Virus record (IMG/VR): IMGVR_UViG_3300037845_000048
Coordinates: 1-50,903 of that record
DNA length: 50,903 nucleotides
DNA from: a virus
Taxonomy: Duplodnaviria > Caudoviricetes
Strand: one strand, 5' to 3'
In this document: in pieces, positions 2,947 through 19,575 of the stretch
How the letters are laid out: every line of letters begins with the position of its first letter
Position numbering within the stretch: position 1 is the first letter of the stretch
Notes under the pieces: generated by a model
The model's database searches: none
What the model was told of the DNA's origin: nothing
What the model saw: the letters and a program-made list of their open reading frames with translations, nothing else
Translations under genes and position numbers: made by a program

Positions 2947-5310
2947 CCCCCGAGACCCGAGCCGCACGCGACCGCCTAGCCCGATACGCCGGCCCCGACT
3001 TCCAGCCCCCGCCGATCGACCTCCCACGCCACCTCAACTGCCTCACCATCGCCGAAGTCGAACGCCTGATCGGCCGGATCGAGAGCGACATCCGCGACAC
3101 GCTCGCACCCGACATCCGGGCCATCGTCGAAGCGCTCGACCAGCACGACGAAGCCGAGAAAGACATCTGATGCAACCCCACGCGCAAGCCGCACGCGACA
3201 GGATCACCGCATACCTCGACGCCATGGCAGTCGACTCGCCGTGGGACTGGGAAATGGTCGGCCTCCACGGAACGAAACTCGAAAGCCGCGACCTGCGCCT
3301 GGTCCTGGCCGCGCTCGACCGGCGACCCACCGCCGTCATCGTCTGCGACCACACGCTCACCGAGGAACAGGCCGAAGACCTCAAACGCCGGTTCCTCGAA
3401 GCACAGCACGAGTCACCGATCCGCGACACGGCCGCAATCGTCCACCGCTACCTCAATCCGCCAGGCATGCCCTACGGCCTGACACCCCATCAGGCACCCG
3501 ACCGGTAACGGCCATGGACCAGATCGGCTGGTACATCGCCACCCTCCACGGGCTACTCGGCCACGACACGGCCGCCGCCGTGCTCGGCCAAGACCCCGGC
3601 GACAAGAACGCATGCGCACTCTGCGCCTACGAACGCGAACCCACACCCGAACACAAGCACGCGGTCGAGGCCGCCCTGACGCCAACCGGGAAAGCGAAGA
3701 CGACATGAGCGAGAGCCCCACATCCCGTTACCGCAAGAACCGGGCCAGGGCCTACCAGAACAAATTCGGCATCCGCTACACCCACGCCCTGCGCCTGGTC
3801 AACGCCGAGATGGAAGCACCCGACTTCGACCCGCGCTCACCGATCCCCGAGGAGCTGCCCGCGTGAACCGCTCAATCGTCTACGCGCGGCCCACCCCCGA
3901 AGGCATCGAGATCCTCTGCGACTGCGCCTTCACCACCGTGCTGGTCGTCGACGGCGTCCTAGAACGTGCCATCGAGCAGGCGTTCACCTGCGACGGATGC
4001 ATGACCGTCCACTGGTTCACCCTCACACCGAACAACCCGCAAACCTCCGATGACTCCGAAGCGAAAGGCACACAGTGACCATCCAAGTCGAGTTCACCGG
4101 CGACATAGTCCACATCTACGATGGCGACGGCACGCGCGCAGTCGAAGACACGCTCATCGTCACCGCCATGCAATGGGCACACCTCGTCGCGGCCATCCGC
4201 CTGCCGCCCCCCGAGGGCAGCGACGGTCATCCCCTCGTTCCTGCCTTTGCCGCCGCGTTCCTGTGCCCCTCCTGCCAGGGGCGCGGCACCGACCGCGACG
4301 GTTGCGCAGACTGCGACACGTGCAACGGCACTGGCTTATCCATCACCGAAAAGGACACGCAGTGACCGACACCACCGATGGACTCGGAGACCTCGCGGCC
4401 GAGCTCGCCGCCCTCGCCGCAGACACCACCGCGCAGATCACCGCGCTCGCCCAGCAACTCCAGCAGTTCATCATCCAAACCAGCCCACAATGCGCCACGT
4501 GCCTCGCCGAAGCACGCCAAGGAGCCCGGCCTGGCGCCAACCTCGTCAACGTCATCCTCGACGGCACCGGCTACTGCCACGACCATTGCGACGTCGTCAA
4601 CGGGCGGCTCGTGCCCAAGAAAAGCAGCGGCCTGATCGTCGCAGGAGGATGACGTGATCGGCACCTATTTCGCGCTCACCGGCGACGTCATCGCCCTCGC
4701 AGCCGCCTACTTCGCGCGCCGCGCAACCGTCCACCAGCGCCGCGCGCAACGCAAACTCGACGCCATCGCCGCCCTCGAAGTCCACGGCCGCGAATTCGTA
4801 GACGCCGCCCAGCTCTACGCCATCCTCGGCCGGCCCATCCCCGAACCGATCGACCACGCCGCCAACCTCCGTGCCAGAGTCGAACAGATCTTCACCCCCG
4901 GCCAACCCGACCCGCACAGTCCATACCGGAGCCCGTACACGTGAAGGCGTGCCCGGCGTGCGGAAGAGTGGTCGGCCTCTATTCGAACGGAAAACCGCCG
5001 CCCTCGCCTACCTCGGCGAGACACCATGAACGACCGGCGCCCGGCGTACCCCATCCCGGAATCCCTCACCATCCACCCCGCCGACCGCCACGAACTCAAC
5101 CGGCAACTACCCACCGCCACCGTCTACGGCCAACCCATCCACGGCAACACACCCATCATCGAAGACCCCGGCATGACGCCCGGGACACTACGCATCCGCA
5201 TCCAAGGCACCGACGCCACCGTCACCCTCGGACACCGGCCCACGCCGCGCTGGATACGCTGCGACCCCCACACCGGGCTACCCATCGGAGAACACGCGTT
5301 CGAAACGTGA
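2943..5310 (+). CDS. run of small coupled hypothetical genes (2943-3170, 3170-3508, 3514-3708, 3705-3866, 3863-4078, 4075-4365, 4362-4652, 4654-4944, 5026-5310)
   Basis: Mostly chained start/stop overlaps with RBS-like motifs and high GC3. No recognisable families. Confidence 0.55.
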
Positions 5311-5405: not shown

Positions 5406-5894
5406 ATGAGCGAGCCGAACAGCCGCAACCGGACCGCCGACCGCGACTTCGACATCTGGCAGCGATACAGCGACGGCCAAACCCAGGAGCAAATCGCAGC
5501 CCATTACGACCTCAGCCAACCGCAAGTCAGCGCGATCATCGCCCGCATGCGCGACGACATCCCCATCGAAGAACGCCGCGCACGCCAACGCCGCCAACTC
5601 GCCGACCTCGACCACCTACGCCAAGCCGCACTCGCCCTCGCCGACGCCGACCCCATCCCCGCCTACTCCAACGGCCGACCCATCATCCTCGCCGACGGCC
5701 ACACCATCGCCGAAGACCACACCAGCCGCGTCCGCGCCATGGACCTCGTGATCAAACTCCAAGAACGCGAAGCCAAAGCCCTCGGCACCGACGCCGCCAC
5801 CAAAATCAACCTCGAAGCCGAACAGACCGGCGAACGCATCAAATCCCTCCTGCGCAGGATCGCCGGCCAGAGCACCACCGATGACGCAGATTGA
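5406..5894 (+). CDS. terS: terminase small subunit (N-terminal HTH)
   Basis: GGGAGG RBS, HTH 'QTQEQIAAHYDLSQPQVSAII', and overlap with terL. Confidence 0.75.
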   Translation: MSEPNSRNRTADRDFDIWQRYSDGQTQEQIAAHYDLSQPQVSAIIARMRDDIPIEERRARQRRQLADLDHLRQAALALADADPIPAYSNGRPIILADGHTIAEDHTSRVRAMDLVIKLQEREAKALGTDAATKINLEAEQTGERIKSLLRRIAGQSTTDDAD

Positions 5895-7383
5895 CCTCGG
5901 CGCAGCCCAAGCCGACATCGACGCACTCATCCGCACCGGCAACCTCAAAGCCCTGCGCGCCCTCGAAGCCGACCTTCAATCCGTCGCCGACCGCATCGAG
6001 GCCGGCCAGCGCCAGGAACGCTGGCAGCACGACCCGGCCGCGTGGGTCAGCGAGCGCCTGGGCGGCTTCGCGTGGTCCAAGCAGCGCGAGATCCTTGCCG
6101 CGGTGCGCGACCATCGGCGCACCGCGGTGCGCTCCGGGCACGGCGTCGGCAAGTCGCACACCGCCGCGCTGGTCGCGTGCTGGTGGCTGGACACCCACCC
6201 GCCGGGCTCGGCGTTCGTCGTGTCCACGGCGCCGACGTTCCCGCAGGTGCGCGCGATCCTGTGGCGCTACATCCGCCGACTGCACACCGCCGCCGAGCTG
6301 CCCGGGCGCGTCAACCAGACCGAATGGTTCATCGACGACGAGCTCGTCGGCTACGGGCGCAAGCCCGCCGACACCGACGAGTCCGCGTTCCAGGGCATCC
6401 ACGAACGCTACGTGCTGGTCCTGATCGACGAGGCGTGCGGCATCCCCGAACAGCTGTGGGTCGCGGCGGACTCCCTCACCACGAACGTGGACTGCCGGAT
6501 GCTCGCGATCGGCAACCCCGACAACCCCGCATCGCACTTCCGCAAGGTGTGCGCCCCCGGCTCCGGCTGGCACACGATCGGGATCTCCGCGTTCGACTCC
6601 CCGAACCTGTCCGGCGAGCAGGTGCCCAAGAAGATGGCGCTCAGCCTCGTATCGCGCGAATGGGTGGAGGAGAAGCGCGACGAGTGGGGCGAGGACAACC
6701 CCCTGTATCGCTCCAAGGTCCTCGGCGAGTTCTCCGTCGACCACCCCAATCAGGTGGTGCGCCAGTCGGACGTGGCCGCGTGCCGACTGCCGGCCGAGAC
6801 CGCGCCGGCGGGGAAGGATCTGCTGCCGGTCGAGCTCGGCGTGGACGTCGGGGGCGGCGGCGACGAGACGGTGATCCGGGAGCGGCGCGGCCGGGTCGCC
6901 GGGCGGGAGTGGCGGGCGCGCACGGACCGGCCGGAGGCGATCGCGCCGTTGGTGCTTCAGGCGATCCGGGAGACCGGCGCGTCCGCGGTGAAGGTGGACA
7001 GCATCGGCATCGGGTTCGGGGTGATCGGCGAGCTGCGCAACATGGGCGCGGAGCTGCACCGGGCGCATGTGCAGGCGGTGAACGTCGCGGAGAAGCCGCA
7101 GGACCCGGACAAGTATGTGAACCTGCGCGCGGAGCTGTGGTGGGAGATCGGGCGCGGCCTGTCGGAGCGGGGAGGGTGGGATCTGTCGGGGATGGAGAAT
7201 GCGGATGTGACGGTCGCGCAGTTGCTGGAGCCGCGGTGGGAGATCGATGCGCAGGGGCGTATCAAGGTCGAGCCGAAGGCGGAGGTGATCAAGCGGTTGG
7301 GGCGCTCGCCGGACAACGCCGACGCCCTTCTTCTAGCTTTCTACGTGGGTCGTCGTCCGGGTTACCGTTCGTTCCAGCGTTGA
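5881..7383 (+). CDS. terL: terminase large subunit
   Basis: Walker A 'SGHGVGKS', Walker B 'VLIDEA', 'IGNP', and nuclease motifs 'LGVDVG' and 'SPDNADAL'. Confidence 0.95.
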   Translation: MTQIDLGAAQADIDALIRTGNLKALRALEADLQSVADRIEAGQRQERWQHDPAAWVSERLGGFAWSKQREILAAVRDHRRTAVRSGHGVGKSHTAALVACWWLDTHPPGSAFVVSTAPTFPQVRAILWRYIRRLHTAAELPGRVNQTEWFIDDELVGYGRKPADTDESAFQGIHERYVLVLIDEACGIPEQLWVAADSLTTNVDCRMLAIGNPDNPASHFRKVCAPGSGWHTIGISAFDSPNLSGEQVPKKMALSLVSREWVEEKRDEWGEDNPLYRSKVLGEFSVDHPNQVVRQSDVAACRLPAETAPAGKDLLPVELGVDVGGGGDETVIRERRGRVAGREWRARTDRPEAIAPLVLQAIRETGASAVKVDSIGIGFGVIGELRNMGAELHRAHVQAVNVAEKPQDPDKYVNLRAELWWEIGRGLSERGGWDLSGMENADVTVAQLLEPRWEIDAQGRIKVEPKAEVIKRLGRSPDNADALLLAFYVGRRPGYRSFQR

Positions 7384-13400: not shown

Positions 13401-15524
13401 GACACACCGGGATGTGCGCGTGATCGGAGCGGGAGATGACTGACCTCGACCAGGCCATTCGCGCCCGGCTGGACCACCTCTACAAGCAGGGCGGATCTTC
13501 GCCGCGACAGCTGCGTGCCGCGCTGCTCGGCGTACTGGCCTTCCATCAACCGGAGGATACGGACTTCACAGACGCCGATGGCCAGTCCCGCTCCAGCACT
13601 GACTGTGCGACCTGCGATAACGGCGGAGTCCCCGGGAACTGGCCATGCTCCACGCTGCGCACGATCGCCGAGAAACTGGGAATCGAACATGACTGACCTG
13701 AACGGAGCGACCATGACCCAACCCGGCGTTCTCGAACGCATCGCCACCGCACTCGAAACCATCGCCGCCATGCTCACCGGCGAAACCCCCACCACCCCCG
13801 CCGCGCGCACGCCACGCCACCCCGAGACCCGGTTCGAATGGGAACCCGCCGCCGACCAGGCCCCCGCCGCACCCCTGCCCGAACCCACGCCCCCCGAAGA
13901 ACGGTGCGGGTTCCTCATCGAGAAATACACCCACCCCCTGGACCGCGTCACCCCCGTCTACCAGATCAGCAAAGCCGGGGCCACCATCCTGCTCACCGAG
14001 CAGGAGGCCACGGCGCTGGCCGCACTCAGCGACGAGGAGTTCACGGGGGTCATGGCCGCCCGGCTCGCCGAAGTACTCGCCCAACGGCACGCCGCAGCGG
14101 CGGCGACGCCCGCGCCGTCCGCGGCGGATGACATCGAGGACGAAGACGAGGCGCGCGAGCGCCAATGGGCGCGCACGTTCAACGCCCACCCCGACCCCGA
14201 CGAAGCAGCGCGCACATGACCGGCGTCCTGCTGTTCGTGGTCGTGTTCGCGGCGTTCTACCCGCTCGGGGTGCTTCGCGCGAGGCTGCGCCCGGGGCCGT
14301 ACGCTCGACCCCATGCACACCACCACCGAAACGAGTCCCGCCGGCGCCGGGGCCGTGCCCGATCTGCGCCGCATGCCGCTCGGGAAGGCGGCGCCGGGGC
14401 CGGCGGTCCGGCTGGTGCGGCGACTGCTGCGCGACGAGGTCGTTGCGGCGGCGCAGTTCCAGTCCTCAGTCTGACCGCCGGCACCATGCGCACGCGTCCC
14501 CGCATTCCGACGCCGCGCCTAAACTCGAACCCATCCAACCGAGCCGACCAGGGAGTACCCGTGAGCGTTTTCTCCGAGATCGCCGCCGAAGCCGAGACCT
14601 TCAAGACGAAGCTCGCCGCCGATGCCGGGCATCTGCTCGGCGAGTTCGAGGCCCTGTGGGGCAAGCTGACCGATCAGGCCATGACCGACGGCGCTGATGT
14701 CATCAAGAAGGTCGAGCCCGTGGCCGCCGCGGCGGAAGCGGACGCGGCCGGGCTCGCCGGTGAGGCCGTGGCCGGTGCCGAGGGCATCGTGGACCCGGCG
14801 AAGCCGAGCGCCTGATGGGCACCGTGCCGAGTGTCGGCCGCGTCGTGCACTACGTCTCGCACGGCACCCCAGTCCGCGCCGACGGGACGCAGGCGTTCCA
14901 GAGCGTTTGCCGCACCGCGCTGATCACCGAGGTGGGCGAATGGCCCGAAGGGATCAGCGAAGCCGACCGCAGCAACATCGCCGTCCCCGTCGGGCTCGCC
15001 GTGCTCAACCCCACCGGCATGTTCTTCCAGCAGGGATGCATGCAGAGCGAGCTCGGCCACGAGGGCGGCTCGTGGCACTGGCCCGAGCGCGTCTAGCGCC
15101 CAGAAGGGAAGCACTGGCATGGAATGGACCTGGCAGATCGTCTACAACCCTGCGGCGCCTATCGACTCCGTCACGGCCGCCGCCCTCGAAGTCGACGAGA
15201 TCTCCTACGACCTGGTCGACGCGCAGGGCGCCGTGGTGTGGTCCGCACCGACCGGCAGCGTGCGCAACGTGACCCGGGGCGACGCCGTCACGCCGCCGAC
15301 CACCCAGAACGCGCCGGGGTCCTGACGTGGCGGAGCGCAGCGAGCACCTGAGCGACCCCGAGGGCACCGCAACCCACCGCCGCACCGGCCGAGGCGGCGA
15401 CGGCGAGATCTCCCAGAGCACCAGCGACGCACGCTACGACCAGGTGCAGGACGCCACCGCGAACGGCGACCCGGACGGTGTCGGGGACACGGCGCGCGGC
15501 TGGTTCCGCCGGTCGCGCAACTAA
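10494..15524 (+). CDS. rightward run of about 20 small hypothetical genes (e.g. 10494-10670, 10672-10863, 10865-11197, 11199-11426, 11428-11655, 11657-11980 wHTH-like, 11982-12170, 12172-12471, 12658-12870, 12867-13121, 13114-13443, 13436-13696, 13689-14219, 14561-14815, 14815-15096, 15119-15325, 15327-15524)
   Basis: Tightly chained TGA-n-ATG/GTG junctions and high GC3. Individual starts are approximate. Confidence 0.55.
10672..11519 (+). repeat. 92-bp direct repeat (10672-10763 and 11428-11519)
   Basis: Both copies start at an ATG (MAQAFGN...FEAIA) and differ at 4 positions. Confidence 0.9.
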
Positions 15525-15538
15525 CCGGTAGAGACGAG

Positions 15539-15575
15539 GAGAGCCGCATCCCGCGCTGGGGGGGATGCGGCTCTC
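15539..15575. terminator. hairpin terminator between convergent units
   Basis: GAGAGCCGCATCCC...GGGATGCGGCTCTC, a 14-bp perfect stem. Confidence 0.8.
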
Positions 15576-15618
15576 TGCGTGCTGCACTCGCGGCGCACGC
15601 CAACCGGAATCACCGGTA

Positions 15619-15690
15619 GCGCCTCGACGGGACTCGAACCCGCGCCTCTCCCCTCGAACGGGGAGCGCCCTGCCATTAGGCCACGAGACT
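15619..15690 (-). tRNA. tRNA-like gene or pseudo-tRNA with atypical anticodon loop
   Basis: - strand: acceptor GTCTCG/CGAGGC, D-arm GCCTAATGGCAGGGC, anticodon stem CTCCC/GGGAG with 8-nt loop CGTTCGAG, T-arm GCGGG-TTCGAGT-CCCGT. No encoded CCA. Confidence 0.65.
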
Positions 15691-15786
15691 GGGCCGCATG
15701 CACGCTGTCGGCCGAAACGGGAAATGTCCCTCAGCGGCTGCCTGCCGTGACTGCCACGGTAGCAGCGGCGGTGTCAGCGCGGGACG

Positions 15787-16326
15787 CTACCCTGCGCGCT
15801 CCTCCAGCTCCCCGAGACGCCGCTTGAGCTCCGCGATCTCCTCTTCCGTGCGCTCCCCGCGCTCCATCACCGCGTCCAGCGCCTTCTCCGTGCGGCGCTG
15901 GCGCCCGGCGAGGCGGCGGTTGATCTCCATCTGCTCCGCGAACCCCCGCGCGACCACCTCGAACGCCTTGCGCACCTCCGGGTCGGCGTCGGACAGGTCC
16001 ACGTTCGTGGCCTTCGAGTACGCCATCTCCAATTGCGCCCCGGCGCGGCGCCCATGGGTGTGTGCGAGGCGCAGCTGCCCGTTCACGTCCACGACCCGGT
16101 AGCCCTCGTTGCGCACCCCCTCGATCGCGCGCTTGTCCTTCTCCTCGTGTTCTTCGGCCGCGCGCCGCATGGCGGTGATCATCGCGGAGCGGTGGCGCAC
16201 CGGGTCGAGGCCGAGGGCGTCGGCCATCGCCTGGTAGGTCACGATCCCGCCGACGGGGGTGCCCTTGAGCAGCCGGTAGAGGACCTTCCATCGCGGTTCG
16301 TCGCCAAGCGGTTCGAACGGGCTCAC
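15787..16326 (-). CDS. wHTH-like plus coiled-coil accessory protein coupled to the RAMP-like gene
   Basis: GTGA overlap with the stop at 16323. 'VTYQAMADALGLD...VRNEGYRVV' is wHTH-like; the C-terminus is a coiled coil. Confidence 0.7.
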   Translation of the reverse strand: MSPFEPLGDEPRWKVLYRLLKGTPVGGIVTYQAMADALGLDPVRHRSAMITAMRRAAEEHEEKDKRAIEGVRNEGYRVVDVNGQLRLAHTHGRRAGAQLEMAYSKATNVDLSDADPEVRKAFEVVARGFAEQMEINRRLAGRQRRTEKALDAVMERGERTEEEIAELKRRLGELEERAG

Positions 16327-16928
16327 GACACGTCCTTGACGACGGTCAGCGTGCCCTCGAAGCGCCCGTAGCGCGGGCGCCAGTCCCCGAGGCCGATGAG
16401 GCGCCCGGCGATGTCCACGAGCTGCGTGAGGTCGTCGTAGTCGAGGACTTCTGTGTCGAGGTAGAGCATCGCGGAAGTTCGCCACGAGTTGTCGGAGTTC
16501 TTGGGATCAACCGGAAACTTCGGCCGGGTGCGGATGATGCGCTGCTGTCCGACTTTCGCGGAGGCCTGGAGCATGAAGTTGCCGTCGCGCCACAGCTCGT
16601 CGGGTTCGCGGGGGCCTTTGTAGGCGAGGGGGTTCTCGTCGGTGGTGATGATGACGCCGGAGGTGACTTTGACGCCGAGTTTGCGTTTGCGGCCTGCGTC
16701 GACGAGGCAGCGGAAGATGTTGTCGGCGGGGATGTAGGGGCCGACGGGGCCGTTGTAGAGGCCGCCGAGGAATTCGAGGCGGGCGAGTTCGAGGTAGTCG
16801 TCTTCGGATTTGCTGCGTTTGGCGCTGACTTTCTTCATGGCGCGGGCGAGTTCGTCGAGGGGGTTGGAGAGTCGGGCGTTGTGCATGAGGAGTGGTGCGG
16901 TGCCGGTGATGTCGAGTTTGAGGTCCAT
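16323..16928 (-). CDS. stand-alone Cas7/RAMP-like RNA-binding protein (Vipr-like)
   Basis: 201 aa from ATG 16928 (ACAGGACGG RBS). Motifs 'ITGTAPLLMHN', 'PYIPADNIFRCLVDAG', 'RTRPKF..W' and the G-rich loop 'IGLGDWRPRYGRF' occur in RAMP order. Confidence 0.75.
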   Translation of the reverse strand: MDLKLDITGTAPLLMHNARLSNPLDELARAMKKVSAKRSKSEDDYLELARLEFLGGLYNGPVGPYIPADNIFRCLVDAGRKRKLGVKVTSGVIITTDENPLAYKGPREPDELWRDGNFMLQASAKVGQQRIIRTRPKFPVDPKNSDNSWRTSAMLYLDTEVLDYDDLTQLVDIAGRLIGLGDWRPRYGRFEGTLTVVKDVS

Positions 16929-16950
16929 CGGGTTCCGTCCTGTAGTGGTG

Positions 16951-17616
16951 ACCATGCCTAGGCCTGCCGGGCCTGGACCTGCCATGCCGAGTCACGCCCG
17001 GCAGAGCCCTGCGGAGCCGAGGGCTGCCCTGCCATGCACGGTCGAGCCATGCGCAGCCCTGCGTGCGTGTCCGGGATTCGGACCCGGATATATGCCGTCC
17101 GCGCTGGTGGAACCCATGCCGTGCCCTGCCGGGCGCTGACTCGCCGCGACACGCCGCGCGTTGCCTTGACCCGCCTAGCGTGGCCAAGTCCCGCCAGGCC
17201 ATGCGTTGCCCCGACATGCCGGGACGCGCCTCGCCGGGAGGAACACGCACGTGGTCACGCGCGCACTCCACTCGAAGAGGAACCCAAGCCGGGCCTAGAC
17301 CTGCCCTGACAAGCCATGCCGCGTCCTGCCGTGCCCTGCGTGTGTGCCGGGGACTCGGACCCCGGGGTATGCCGTCCACACGGTGAAACCCAAGCCCTGC
17401 AATGCCCGACCAAGCCCAGCCGTTGCCACGCCGCGCCATGGCTTGCCCGGCCGGGACTCGCCCCGCCCAGAGACCCGTGCGCGGACCACGCCGCACGGGA
17501 ATCACCCGAAGGGGAACCAAGCCGAAGCCAAGCCGGGCCTCGCGGAGCCTAGACCGGCCTCGCCATGCCCCGGCTCGCGCTGCCCGGCGCTGCCCTGCAT
17601 CGCATAGCCGCGCCAC
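16951..17616 (-). ncRNA. array of five pentamer-periodic (NN-GGC) tracts with structured spacers; putative guide-RNA array
   Basis: Tracts 16951-17060 (22 units), 17113-17237 (25), 17283-17337 (11), 17389-17469 (16) and 17516-17616 (20). + strand units are mostly GCCNN. Confidence 0.85.
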
Positions 17617-17635
17617 ACGCCGCCGCGTGTCATTA

Positions 17636-17665
17636 ACCATAGCACCACGCCAGTTCGCACGTGAA
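17636..17665 (-). promoter_or_regulatory. putative promoter for the array and RAMP operon
   Basis: TTCACG-18 nt-TATGGT with an extended TG (TGCTATGGT, 17644-17636). It is followed by the hairpin ACACGC-GGCG-GCGTGT. Confidence 0.55.
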
Positions 17666-17815
17666 ACCGCGCGATAAAACACTACGAAACCCACCTGTTG
17701 CCACCCGCGCAACACGCTGACCAGCCGCTACCGCCTGCCTAATCAGCGATGTACCCTCACCATCAGGCGCACTGACAATGCGCCATACTCAGCATCGAGG
17801 GGAGGCGGCGGTCCG

Positions 17816-18082
17816 ATGTCGGTCGGCACCATCACCCCCCCGCGCAACGCCGCCAGACCCCGGGACAGGTGGCGAAGCGCACGCACGGCACTCGACGCGG
17901 CGAGGCGTAGAGGTGCCACGGTGGTCGGCGCGGTGCGGCACCACAACTGGAGCCCCGCGCTGACCATCAGCGGACTCTCCTGCATCGACGCCGCGTTCTA
18001 CCAGCACGGGTGGTTCGCCGGACTCCTCGCCACCGGCATCAGCGCCCTGGTCTACGACTGGTCCCGCGAGCGCGGCGCATGA
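17816..18082 (+). CDS. small membrane protein preceding portal
   Basis: GGGGAGG RBS, two hydrophobic segments, ATGA overlap with portal. Confidence 0.6.
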   Translation: MSVGTITPPRNAARPRDRWRSARTALDAARRRGATVVGAVRHHNWSPALTISGLSCIDAAFYQHGWFAGLLATGISALVYDWSRERGA

Positions 18083-19575
18083 GCCTGATCGGCAAAGCCC
18101 TCGCCGTGCGCAACAAGGCCCCCATCCCCCTGGACAACGGTCGCGCCTACCGCCGCGGCGTCGCGTTCAACCTCGGCAACGGGCGCGCCGACGCCGAGAC
18201 CGCGATGCGCCAGTACGGCCTGTCCGGCACCATCTACGGGATCATCTCGCTGCTCGCCGAGACCGCCGCCACCCCGAAATGGCACCTGTACAAGAAGCAG
18301 CCCGTCGACGGGCGACGCAGGTACACCACCGCGGACAAGGGCACCGACCAGCGCATCGAAGTCGTGCAGCACGCGGCGATCCAGCTTTGGAACTCACCCA
18401 ATGCGTGGCACTCAAGGTTCGAATATGCGGAGGGTTGCCAGCAGCACGAGGAGCTGACCGGCGAGACCTTCTGGGTCCTGGACACGGACGCCGGATTCCC
18501 CACCAGCATGTGGTACGTACGCCCCGACCGCATGGAACCGGTCCCCGACCCCGACAACTTCCTCGTCGGCTGGATCTACCGAGGCCCCAACGGCGAGGAC
18601 GTCCCCCTGCGGGCCGACGAGGTCATCCTCGAGAAGCGCCCCAACCCCCTAGATCCGTACCGGGGTGCCGGGCCGGTCGCGTCGATCATGCCGAACATCC
18701 AGCAGCAGCGGTACGCCACCGAGTACCAGCGCAACCTCTTCTTGAACGGCGCGGACCCCGGCGGCGTGATCACCGTCCCCAACCGGCTCACCGAGCCACA
18801 GTTCGACGAGCTCGTGGACCGGTGGCGTGAGGCCCACCGCGGCGTCGCCCGCGCCGGACAGGTCGGCGTCCTGGAGGACGGCGCCACCTGGGCGCCCAAC
18901 GCCCACACCAACAAGGACATGGAGTACGGGCAGCTGCGCCTAGCCAACCGGGACGAGCTGCGCGAGGCGTGGCGCATCCACAAGGCCATGATGGGCACCA
19001 GCGACGACGTGAACCGCGCGAACTCGCAAACCGCGCAGGAAGTGTTCGTCGCGTGGCAGGTGCTGCCCCGCCTGAACCGGCGCCGCGACACCCTGAACAA
19101 CAAGCTGCTGCCGCTGTTCGGCAACGCCGACAAGACCGTCGAGTTCGACTACGAGGACCCCAGCCCCGAGAACGCCGAAACCGCGGCCCTCGAGCTGAAA
19201 GAAAAAGCGCAGGCCGCCCAGGCACTGGTCAACGCCGGATACGACCCCCACGACGTCCTCGAGACCGTCGGCCTGCCGGACATGGACGTCGTCGAGACCG
19301 CCACGCAGGCCCCGGCGCTACCCCCCGCGTGGGTACCGGCCGCGCCCCCCGCGCCCGAAACCGCACCCGCCGGCGCACCGGCCGTCCCGGCCGCGCGCGA
19401 ATCGATCAGCGTGTGGGCCAGCGCCCCCCCGATCCCGCAACTGCCCGCGGCCACGCAGGAACCCGAAGCCGAACCCGCACTGGACATCGCGCCGCTCGCC
19501 GCGTTCCTGCGCCACTCACTGAACGGCCGGATGAACGGCCACGCGATCAACGGAGACTCGGAGGCCCGTCGATGA
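18079..19575 (+). CDS. portal protein (HK97 family)
   Basis: 'LTGETFW', 'RPDRM', 'PLDPYRGAGP', 'FLNGADPGGVI', 'VLEDGATW...DMEY'. Confidence 0.9.
   Translation: MSLIGKALAVRNKAPIPLDNGRAYRRGVAFNLGNGRADAETAMRQYGLSGTIYGIISLLAETAATPKWHLYKKQPVDGRRRYTTADKGTDQRIEVVQHAAIQLWNSPNAWHSRFEYAEGCQQHEELTGETFWVLDTDAGFPTSMWYVRPDRMEPVPDPDNFLVGWIYRGPNGEDVPLRADEVILEKRPNPLDPYRGAGPVASIMPNIQQQRYATEYQRNLFLNGADPGGVITVPNRLTEPQFDELVDRWREAHRGVARAGQVGVLEDGATWAPNAHTNKDMEYGQLRLANRDELREAWRIHKAMMGTSDDVNRANSQTAQEVFVAWQVLPRLNRRRDTLNNKLLPLFGNADKTVEFDYEDPSPENAETAALELKEKAQAAQALVNAGYDPHDVLETVGLPDMDVVETATQAPALPPAWVPAAPPAPETAPAGAPAVPAARESISVWASAPPIPQLPAATQEPEAEPALDIAPLAAFLRHSLNGRMNGHAINGDSEARR

Follow-up and report, generated by a model that had tools for sequence, protein, structure and literature searches.

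VIPR, a relative of CRISPR, was described in 2026 (bioRxiv 10.64898/2026.04.26.720920). According to the accessible text of that preprint, each VIPR guide RNA (vrRNA) is composed of a tract of GGY/NN repeats and a conserved structured 3' tail; Vipr protomers polymerize on the GGY triplets, and the NN dinucleotides read double-stranded DNA, with one base skipped per unit (bioRxiv 10.64898/2026.04.26.720920). As far as the accessible text of the VIPR preprints goes, the system silences transcription of rival elements, and its type II references are Escherichia phage SUSP1 and a Pseudomonas fulva prophage (bioRxiv 10.64898/2026.04.26.720920, 10.64898/2026.04.26.720927). In types I and V, the vrRNA arrays are interspersed with hammerhead ribozymes (bioRxiv 10.64898/2026.04.26.720920, fig. 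S19 legend), and the layouts named in the accessible text of the same preprint are pseudoknot tails, staggered arrays, hammerhead-interspersed arrays and single guides (bioRxiv 10.64898/2026.04.26.720920).

The stretch of DNA analyzed here (50,903 nt, hereafter the window) is a whole virus record that is 93% complete. Its minus strand carries a VIPR locus and neighboring elements, listed here in the order in which they would be transcribed (R2 is a covariance model introduced below):

17519 to 17624, minus strand: guide tract of vrRNA 1, with 20 in-phase GGY/NN-type pentamers (17624 to 17525), a 1-nt phase shift and one extra unit.
17468 to 17518, minus strand: tail B1, with a small CCC-UUCG-GGU hairpin, then a hairpin of ~10 bp and a pyrimidine-rich end.
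17392 to 17467, minus strand: guide tract of vrRNA 2, with 9 + 6 pentamers and a 1-nt phase shift at 17422.
17341 to 17391, minus strand: tail A1, a tRNA-elbow-like minihelix (R2, 60.4 bits, E = 1.5e-10).
17286 to 17340, minus strand: guide tract of vrRNA 3, with 11 pentamers, opening with CGC-AG directly after the A1 discriminator.
17236 to 17285, minus strand: tail B2, with a small CUC-UUC-GAG hairpin, then a hairpin of 13 bp, four of them G.U pairs, and UCCC at the end.
17116 to 17235, minus strand: guide tract of vrRNA 4, with 24 pentamers.
17064 to 17115, minus strand: tail A2, a tRNA-elbow-like minihelix (R2, 42.1 bits, E = 9.3e-07).
16954 to 17063, minus strand: fifth guide-like tract, with 22 pentamers and without a structured tail, reaching the vipr ribosome-binding region (16929 to 16953).
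16323 to 16928, minus strand: vipr, encoding a 201-aa RAMP protein with the G-loop GLGDWRPRYGRF (phrog_4652, E = 2.6e-52; PDB 36pp_D).
15787 to 16323, minus strand: vap-like accessory gene (phrog_5926, E = 5.7e-06), start codon uncertain.
15619 to 15690, minus strand: tRNA-like gene with an 8-nt anticodon loop (Rfam tRNA, 44.7 bits; ARAGORN 'tRNA-???').
15534 to 15580, minus strand: strong GC-rich hairpin, recognized from the sequence, with its pairing visible in a chance mir-485 alignment.

The identity of the locus follows from vipr. A preliminary description of this DNA had taken the product of the adjoining gene to be a RAMP protein, and both its homology to Vipr and its Cas7-like fold confirm that assignment. 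As a single sequence, the protein matches PDB 36pp_D ('SUSP1 Vipr protein') over its whole length (E = 1.9e-26), and a profile of this Vipr and 21 relatives matches the same entry with an E of 2.7e-52. The G-loop GLGDWRPRYGRF is invariant or nearly so among the 22 Vipr sequences, and the best fold matches of the AF2 model (pLDDT 92.9) are Cas7/Csm3 subunits. The gene has no Pfam family, and phrog_4652 is annotated "unknown function". Because the gene downstream of the array encodes the Vipr RAMP protein, the locus is a VIPR system, and the minus strand of 16954-17624 is its guide-RNA array, in which the GGY/NN runs are vrRNA guide tracts and the four structured elements are the 3' tails of vrRNAs 1-4. 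Of the loci L001-L033, 25 have at a strict threshold a phased GGC array next to a vipr homologue and on the same strand as the gene; with a more sensitive caller, all of them do except L025. Among 21 loci picked only for a related portal gene, a phased array was found in L054 alone, which also has vipr.

The vap-like product is predicted to have a DNA-binding part and a C-terminal coiled-coil-like part, and it has no clear Pfam family. The gene sits where an accessory vap gene would be expected, and its product matches an actinophage homologue, LittleE gp33, which is encoded by the gene after that phage's vipr (31% identity, E = 8e-23), but barely similar to the Felixounavirus counterpart, wV8 gp94, a marginal match (E = 0.13). 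The array, vipr and the vap-like gene would be transcribed as one minus-strand unit, with the hairpin at 15534-15580 probably marking its end; the terminator scan did not call this hairpin because it lacks a T run. The tRNA-like gene at 15619-15690 is the last element before the hairpin, and its link to the VIPR unit is uncertain. No sigma-70-type site passed the promoter scan, and a candidate chosen by eye at ~17636-17665 agrees at 8 of 12 positions, which is too weak to claim.

The array contains 91 GGY/NN pentamer units in five runs, separated by structured elements in the order B, A, B, A (n = 4). The third pentamer position is a pyrimidine (C or T) in every one of the 91 units, the first and second are each G in 73, and the fourth and fifth vary freely; the canonical GGY triplet occurs in 56 of the 91. 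This 5-nt phasing is unique to the vicinity of the elements within the 50.9-kb window: the 100-nt intervals with at least nine phased GCC number 17 and all start at 16931-17541, and the corresponding search for plus-strand GGC returned none. A folded element follows four of the five tracts, while the fifth tract continues into the vipr ribosome-binding region, with the array ending 25 nt before the gene. At least 14 other loci also have a tail-less tract directly before vipr. These observations agree with the preliminary description in placing the four elements where they are, on the minus strand, in treating that strand as the source of the RNA, and in regarding the stretches between the hairpins as guides, which are now recognized as the pentamer tracts of vrRNAs. 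What it had called "spacers" are, in VIPR terms, the 3' tails of guide RNAs. Other candidates for the pentamer runs (a TRAP-like RNA-binding ring, a DNA iteron or centromere, a G-quadruplex tract and a type III toxin-antitoxin RNA) were dropped once Vipr had been identified. Searches with the array and its guides yielded no relatives or targets: blastn of the array found no match among phage records, a target search that skipped 1 nt per unit over all loci and the window (~0.7 Mb) gave best scores equal to those of shuffled-guide nulls, and exact-pattern scans of viral contigs with guide 3 and with the last 12 units of guide 4 returned 0 matches.

Measured against the SUSP1 and P. fulva systems as the accessible text of the preprints presents them, the locus is alike in its Vipr RAMP protein, its GGY/NN tracts on the gene strand, its structured 3' tails and its carriage by a phage, and it has a small putative accessory gene downstream. 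Unlike in the SUSP1 reference, all of its tracts lie upstream of vipr, and they comprise 11-24 units, compared with the 9-16 reported for VIPR in the accessible text of bioRxiv 10.64898/2026.04.26.720920. The clearest difference lies in the tails: that of SUSP1 is described there as a hairpin-plus-pseudoknot, whereas here two tRNA-elbow mimics and two plain hairpins alternate in one array.

The T-loop of tRNA has a 7-nt consensus, U-U-C-R-A-N-Y. Type A tails had been proposed to mimic a T-arm, and the comparison bears this out. An acceptor-like stem of 5 bp is combined with a YGGCA mini-loop that resembles a D-loop and with a T-stem of 6 bp whose loop reads U-N-C-R-A-N-N; a purine and CGC come next. 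In both copies the T-like stem has 6 bp and the loop 7 nt (UCCGAGU in A1 and UCCGAAU in A2); C stands where tRNA has U55, and in relatives the corresponding place has an unmistakable T-arm, with a loop of the canonical UUCGAnU form. A1 includes the junction GGGUUUCACC, and the discriminator-like A lies at 17341 in A1 and at 17064 in A2. Both copies have A:U at the two extra linker pairs discussed below and ACGC after the stem, and both read through A and CGC-AG into GGC units. In A1, where all 11 pairs are standard, the outer stem is GUGUG/CACAC, and in A2 it is GCGCG/CACGC, with one C.A mismatch in the acceptor-like stem. Of the covariation that had been claimed between these two outer stems, therefore, one change stands as compensated (U-A to C-G), but the other is the C.A mismatch. 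None of the four tails folds significantly better than shuffled sequences on the minus strand (z-scores of +0.18 for A2, +0.72 for A1, -1.23 for B2 and -1.67 for B1), so that folding energy alone does not single them out; the case for the elements is a comparative one.

The comparison began from a seed set: a script looked for a T-like loop together with a T-stem and an outer stem, and it returned 45 copies (42 unique) from 17 loci and the window; the 94.5% pairing in this alignment is circular, as pairing was the selection criterion. Covariance model R1, built from sequences that this script had picked and run against its own source loci (364.5 kb, both strands, including the 21 portal loci), gave no extra match at E ≤ 1 except one weak match (E = 0.06). 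In 99 further loci (genome and metagenome contigs, 329 kb), some of which share contigs with training loci (e.g., L075 with L006 and L085 with L014), R1 gave 64 matches at E ≤ 0.01, and all 64 were on the vipr strand. Pairing in these matches amounted to 99.1% of cells, versus 76.9% after shuffling and 43-57% with slid partners, in an alignment that was fitted to the model and hence leans towards it. Double changes were present at 10 of the 11 pairs, and the observed values were reached by 0 of 500 shuffles. Model R2, built from the R1 matches only and with the window excluded, recovered A1 and A2 with the scores listed above; the next best match in the window (50.9 kb, both strands) reached 17.4 bits, with an E no better than 0.13. 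Covariance models from homologous loci, which the preliminary description had named as a check, thus find the type A tails from other loci's sequences, and the covariation is strong.

Together, the models define a tail family with 107 matches and 86 unique sequences in 40 loci and the window. Its outer stem has 5-6 bp, there is no anticodon arm, and the loop of the 86 unique tails reads U-[U/C/G]-C-R-R-N-N, most commonly UUCGAGU or UUCGACU. The place of the discriminator, after the outer stem, is taken by a purine in 86 of 86, followed by CGC. The linker is 11 nt long with an invariant GG. Two further pairs involve this linker: position -10 is Watson-Crick with -4 in 67 of the 86 unique tails, closing the YGGCA loop, and position -3 is Watson-Crick with loop nucleotide 7 in 62 of the 86. 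The selection had used none of these features (purine and CGC, linker, extra pairs). The two extra covarying pairs fit a folded elbow, and we infer that the two G residues of the mini-loop touch the T-loop as they do in tRNA. These data show that type A is a family of tails that is widespread, supported by covariation and shaped like the upper half of a tRNA, its elbow, with an acceptor-like stem stacked on a T-arm, a one-pair remnant of the D-arm, a YGGCA loop with two G residues and a purine in the discriminator place.

The type A tails are not true tRNAs, a possibility that was ruled out by the missing anticodon arm, by an outer stem of 5-6 bp rather than 7, and by the lack of a match to the Rfam tRNA model (RF00005), which had no hit on the tails at its gathering score or at E ≤ 10. 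At the same two thresholds no known Rfam family was found on the tails of the window, and ARAGORN called no tRNA within the window's array; in L001, L010 and L084 it miscalls tail regions. Other RNAs do contain an elbow of this kind. The tRNA-like domain of tmRNA and the bacterial YrlA (Y-like) RNAs lack an anticodon arm but combine an acceptor-like stem and a T-arm with a mimic of the D-loop. The tails resemble them in that a tRNA elbow is built into another RNA. They differ from them in lacking a CCA end, an alanine identity pair and a partner such as SmpB or Ro60, in being far shorter (~49 nt) and in being arrayed. In engineered polycistronic tRNA-guide RNA arrays and in the MALAT1 mascRNA, a tRNA-shaped element that lies between or behind functional RNAs recruits RNase P and RNase Z to release them; these are full cloverleaf tRNAs or eukaryotic mimics, whereas the tails have no anticodon arm and a D-arm of one pair, and their cleavage would be a prediction from this likeness. 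When five related loci were searched with Rfam, the mascRNA and tmRNA matches on tails all stayed below threshold: one tail of L079 weakly matched mascRNA-menRNA (21.8 bits against a gathering score of 42.5, E = 3.4), and one of L006 matched beta-tmRNA (14.8 bits, E = 0.94).

The covariation also bears on whether the elements act as signals in DNA or in transcription, either as attP-like copies of tRNA 3' halves or as terminators or attenuators between guides. The attP version draws its appeal from phage attachment sites, which in many cases reproduce the T-arm and the 3' acceptor strand of a tRNA gene. The A tails, however, carry their own complementary 5' strand, and compensatory changes over 86 unique copies indicate constraint on an RNA fold and not a recombination core. 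In addition, each locus has several different copies, always on the vipr strand (64/64). For these reasons, the complementary and compensating 5' strands and the multiple differing copies per locus, we rejected the attP reading of the T-arm.

Also in favor of such signals, the hairpins of the type B tails are GC-rich and followed by pyrimidines, and the plus-strand fold of B1 is no worse than that on the minus strand (z = -4.72, which is better than its z of -1.67 on the minus strand, at -21.9 kcal/mol). Yet no T run follows any hairpin of the array, and B2 argues for an RNA read from the minus strand: its 13-bp stem with four G.U pairs forms in minus-strand RNA only, as had been noted, since the same positions are C.A mismatches on the plus strand, and its predicted energy is -18.2 kcal/mol for the minus strand but -13.8 kcal/mol for the plus strand. 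A role of the elements as DNA or transcription signals of either kind is thus highly improbable. The small hairpin is CCC-UUC-GGG in B1 and CUC-UUC-GAG in B2, which upholds the single compensatory pair that had been described between them. Model R2 matched neither B1 nor B2. A third B-type tail comes from L054, the closest relative that has an array, where it is the one internal tail: a hairpin of 4 bp is followed by one of 9 bp with a GCAA loop, and the end is rich in pyrimidines. L074, with 76% Vipr identity, has only the vipr-proximal tract. The three B-type tails (two in the window and one in L054) have an architecture in common and no shared sequence, a combination that fits an RNA fold, with n = 3 being too few for a covariance test. 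Type B is a clade-specific, plain two-hairpin tail, found only in this phage and its close relatives.

The B-A-B-A order had been ascribed to duplication of a two-guide module, a proposal that our analysis supports neither way. Duplication is the simplest route to the order, but A1 and A2 are no closer to each other (core identity of 76%) than each is to the tails of other loci (78%). The two do have in common a rare C at loop position 2 and identical flanks. A 90-nt repeat at 72% identity is approximately what we estimate for two phase-aligned GGC-NN runs. Mixing of tail classes by recombination between arrays is as likely as duplication, and because the only tail in L054, the array-bearing relative nearest to this phage, is of type B, units may have been exchanged between arrays.

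How could such tails contribute to the making of guides? RNase Z cuts CCA-less tRNA precursors exactly after the discriminator. Of 67 tRNA-like tails with another tract behind them, 49 have its pentamers in phase 0 when counting starts at the base that follows the discriminator-like purine (20% would be expected by chance), with the other 18 following runs out of phase 0, and CGC is the first triplet after the discriminator in 55 of the 67. The explanation that we favor, to which we assign a probability of roughly 55%, is that the locus is a VIPR array in which tRNA-like tails mark guide ends by way of a host tRNA 3'-end enzyme, with the tail retained. In this mechanism, the tRNA-like tail would set the boundary between adjacent guides, and a host enzyme, with RNase Z or an exonuclease whose trimming is halted at the stem as candidates, would cut immediately 3' of the discriminator purine. 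Such a cut would let the next guide start with CGC-NN, exactly in pentamer register, while the upstream guide would retain its tail as a cap that resists nucleases, in the manner of the published 3' tail. Vipr itself probably does not read the shape of the tail, since one Vipr serves two unrelated tail shapes and the tail-less fifth tract. Against this explanation, the B tails show nothing of a tRNA, and the array would therefore need another means of forming ends as well.

One alternative has the tRNA-like elements excised whole, by RNase P at the 5' side of the acceptor-like stem and by RNase Z at the 3' side, leaving tail-less guides and a disposable tail. RNase P recognizes stacked acceptor and T stems with a T-loop and the GG of the D-loop, and the type A tails offer precisely this part of a tRNA (stacked acceptor-like and T stems of 11-12 bp, a T-loop and a D-loop-like GG). 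If they are guides at all, the fifth tract and its vipr-proximal counterparts in at least 14 loci function with no tail. RCCA helps bacterial RNase P, but the tails have RCGC after the stem, and between the last GGY unit and the acceptor-like stem lie 5 to 25 variable nt with no fixed register, in contrast to the 3' side. Moreover, the SUSP1 tail stays on the guide and caps the filament, according to the accessible text of the VIPR preprints. Elements that purely cut between guides do exist, as the accessible legend to the hammerhead-interspersed arrays indicates (bioRxiv 10.64898/2026.04.26.720920, fig. S19 legend). We consider whole excision unlikely. The hammerhead arrays, as described in that legend, are like the array in the window in having a self-contained structured RNA between guides that is thought to define ends; a hammerhead cuts by itself, whereas a tRNA mimic would depend on host tRNA-processing enzymes, and an Rfam search found no hammerhead or other ribozyme family in 15300-17800 at E ≤ 10.

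A second alternative, to which we give a similarly small share of belief, treats the tails as handles or caps for VIPR proteins, serving filament nucleation or ending or the docking of the vap product, with the tRNA likeness being a compact, stable fold and the ends made by general RNases (RNase E, RNase III, exonucleases). According to the accessible text of the VIPR preprints, the SUSP1 density has its best quality close to the 3' pseudoknot, and protomers are resolved from 3' to 5', which would suit a handle. Not only pairing but also sequence is highly conserved in the tail family (linker GG, loop and RCGC), which suits contact with a protein, and the B tails must be handled without tRNA enzymes in any case. 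A handle is harder to reconcile with the single Vipr that here serves two unrelated tail shapes and a tail-less tract, and with arrays that have only 9-nt separators (L032). Furthermore, the conserved features are exactly those of the tRNA elbow, including the discriminator purine in 86 of 86, and a mere stable fold needs none of them.

Weakly in favor of the explanation that we prefer, a 291-nt contig from a soil metatranscriptome library matches 17329-17619 with 0 differences. It spans B1 and A1 unbroken and may reflect DNA carry-over rather than transcription, and contigs show neither ends nor strand. Another sequencing run contained only a 165-nt relative of vipr.

The reading with guide ends set by a host tRNA 3'-end enzyme can be extended to actinophage VIPR arrays in general, which would be natural tRNA-guide polycistrons: the elbow tail would hand the precursor to host RNase Z, and perhaps also to RNase P and the CCA-adding enzyme, the guides would be released in register, and the tail would go unread by Vipr. 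We hold this extension more tentatively, at somewhat less than even odds. If the tail is unread by Vipr, then tRNA-like, plain-hairpin and tail-less units could coexist in one array and be swapped between phages. CRISPR repeats processed by Cas6 offer a parallel, since there too a conserved structured element alternates with a variable guide and the partner is a RAMP protein. The array differs from them in that its guides themselves consist of pentamer repeats, its structured elements are not all alike and no Cas6-type nuclease is encoded.

The VIPR system itself is already known, and we could not find in print a tail class of the tRNA-elbow type or its alternation with hairpin tails in one array. 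The accessible text, supplementary methods and legends of bioRxiv 10.64898/2026.04.26.720920 contain no mention of tRNA, T-arm, RNase P or RNase Z, and its supplementary tables or data files may list tail classes by VIPR type. Likewise, tRNA and T-loop are not mentioned in the accessible text of 10.64898/2026.04.26.720927 or 10.64898/2026.10.15.759431, nor are tRNA-like and T-loop in that of 10.64898/2026.10.21.760802.

The covariance model from this analysis can be used to annotate tRNA-elbow tails, and the predicted cut site is precise, at the base after the discriminator-like purine. Cleavage there would show which part of the vrRNA Vipr really needs, which is relevant for reprogramming guides. 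The conserved tRNA-elbow tail points to a fourth route of guide making in VIPR systems, one that would borrow the tRNA-processing enzymes of the host.

The VIPR cassette lies on the minus strand within the ~10.6 kb that separates two packaging genes of the window, and it looks like an accessory island inserted within the packaging module.

5752-7383: terminase large subunit gene (phrog_2)
18010-19575: portal gene (PF04860)

The pentamer tract closest to vipr carries no structured tail in the window, and at least 14 further loci (L002, L006-L013, L016, L021, L030, L054 and L074) share this arrangement; in all of these it stops ~20-30 nt upstream of the start codon, adjoining the ribosome-binding site. 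Binding of Vipr to its own leader could provide a putative feedback control of translation.

16929-17063, minus strand: vipr-proximal pentamer tract and ribosome-binding region

Some pentamer tracts that are otherwise unbroken are interrupted by 1-nt phase shifts, where consecutive runs were called with a single nucleotide separating them. These shifts may be junctions between two tail-less guides, and we liken such putative junctions to published staggered arrays.

17422 and 17524, minus strand: 1-nt phase shifts in the window
L006 2425, L011 2774 and L030 2812 (positions within each related locus): 1-nt phase shifts

Separation of tracts by very short sequences occurs in two other related loci, L032 and L033, where seven tracts of 9-11 pentamers each (3614-4012) are set apart only by 9-nt separators of the GGGUUUCnn type and are accompanied by one terminal hairpin. 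The GGGUUYC motif present in these separators also begins all four of the structured tails in the window.

Beyond vap on the minus strand, we found a tRNA-like gene followed closely by a strong hairpin.

15619-15690, minus strand: tRNA-like gene (Rfam, 44.7 bits)
15534-15580, minus strand: strong hairpin

Because it is located between vap and the hairpin, the tRNA-like gene is a candidate for the final element of the VIPR transcription unit. Its anticodon loop is 8 nt long, its anticodon stem-loop resembles a T-arm (GUUCGA), and ARAGORN could not assign an anticodon. Its D-loop (AAUGGCA) has UGGCA in common with the mini-loop of the vrRNA tails. No counterpart of the gene was found in L054, the nearest relative with an array.

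In five related loci (some of which share contigs), the downstream vrRNA array is followed, shortly past its end, by an opposite-strand gene for tRNA-Met (CAU), a site that may represent a prophage end or attachment site.

L014 4804-4877: tRNA-Met (CAU)
L080 4466-4539: tRNA-Met (CAU)
L084 4537-4609: tRNA-Met (CAU)
L085 4304-4377: tRNA-Met (CAU)
L086 2404-2480: tRNA-Met (CAU)

Odd ARAGORN tRNA calls ("???", Glu and Pro) overlap tRNA-like vrRNA tails in three loci.

L001 3789-3857: odd tRNA call on a tail
L010 2696-2780: odd tRNA call on a tail
L084 4210-4291: odd tRNA call on a tail

The tRNA-like tails of vrRNAs are open to mis-annotation as phage tRNA genes.
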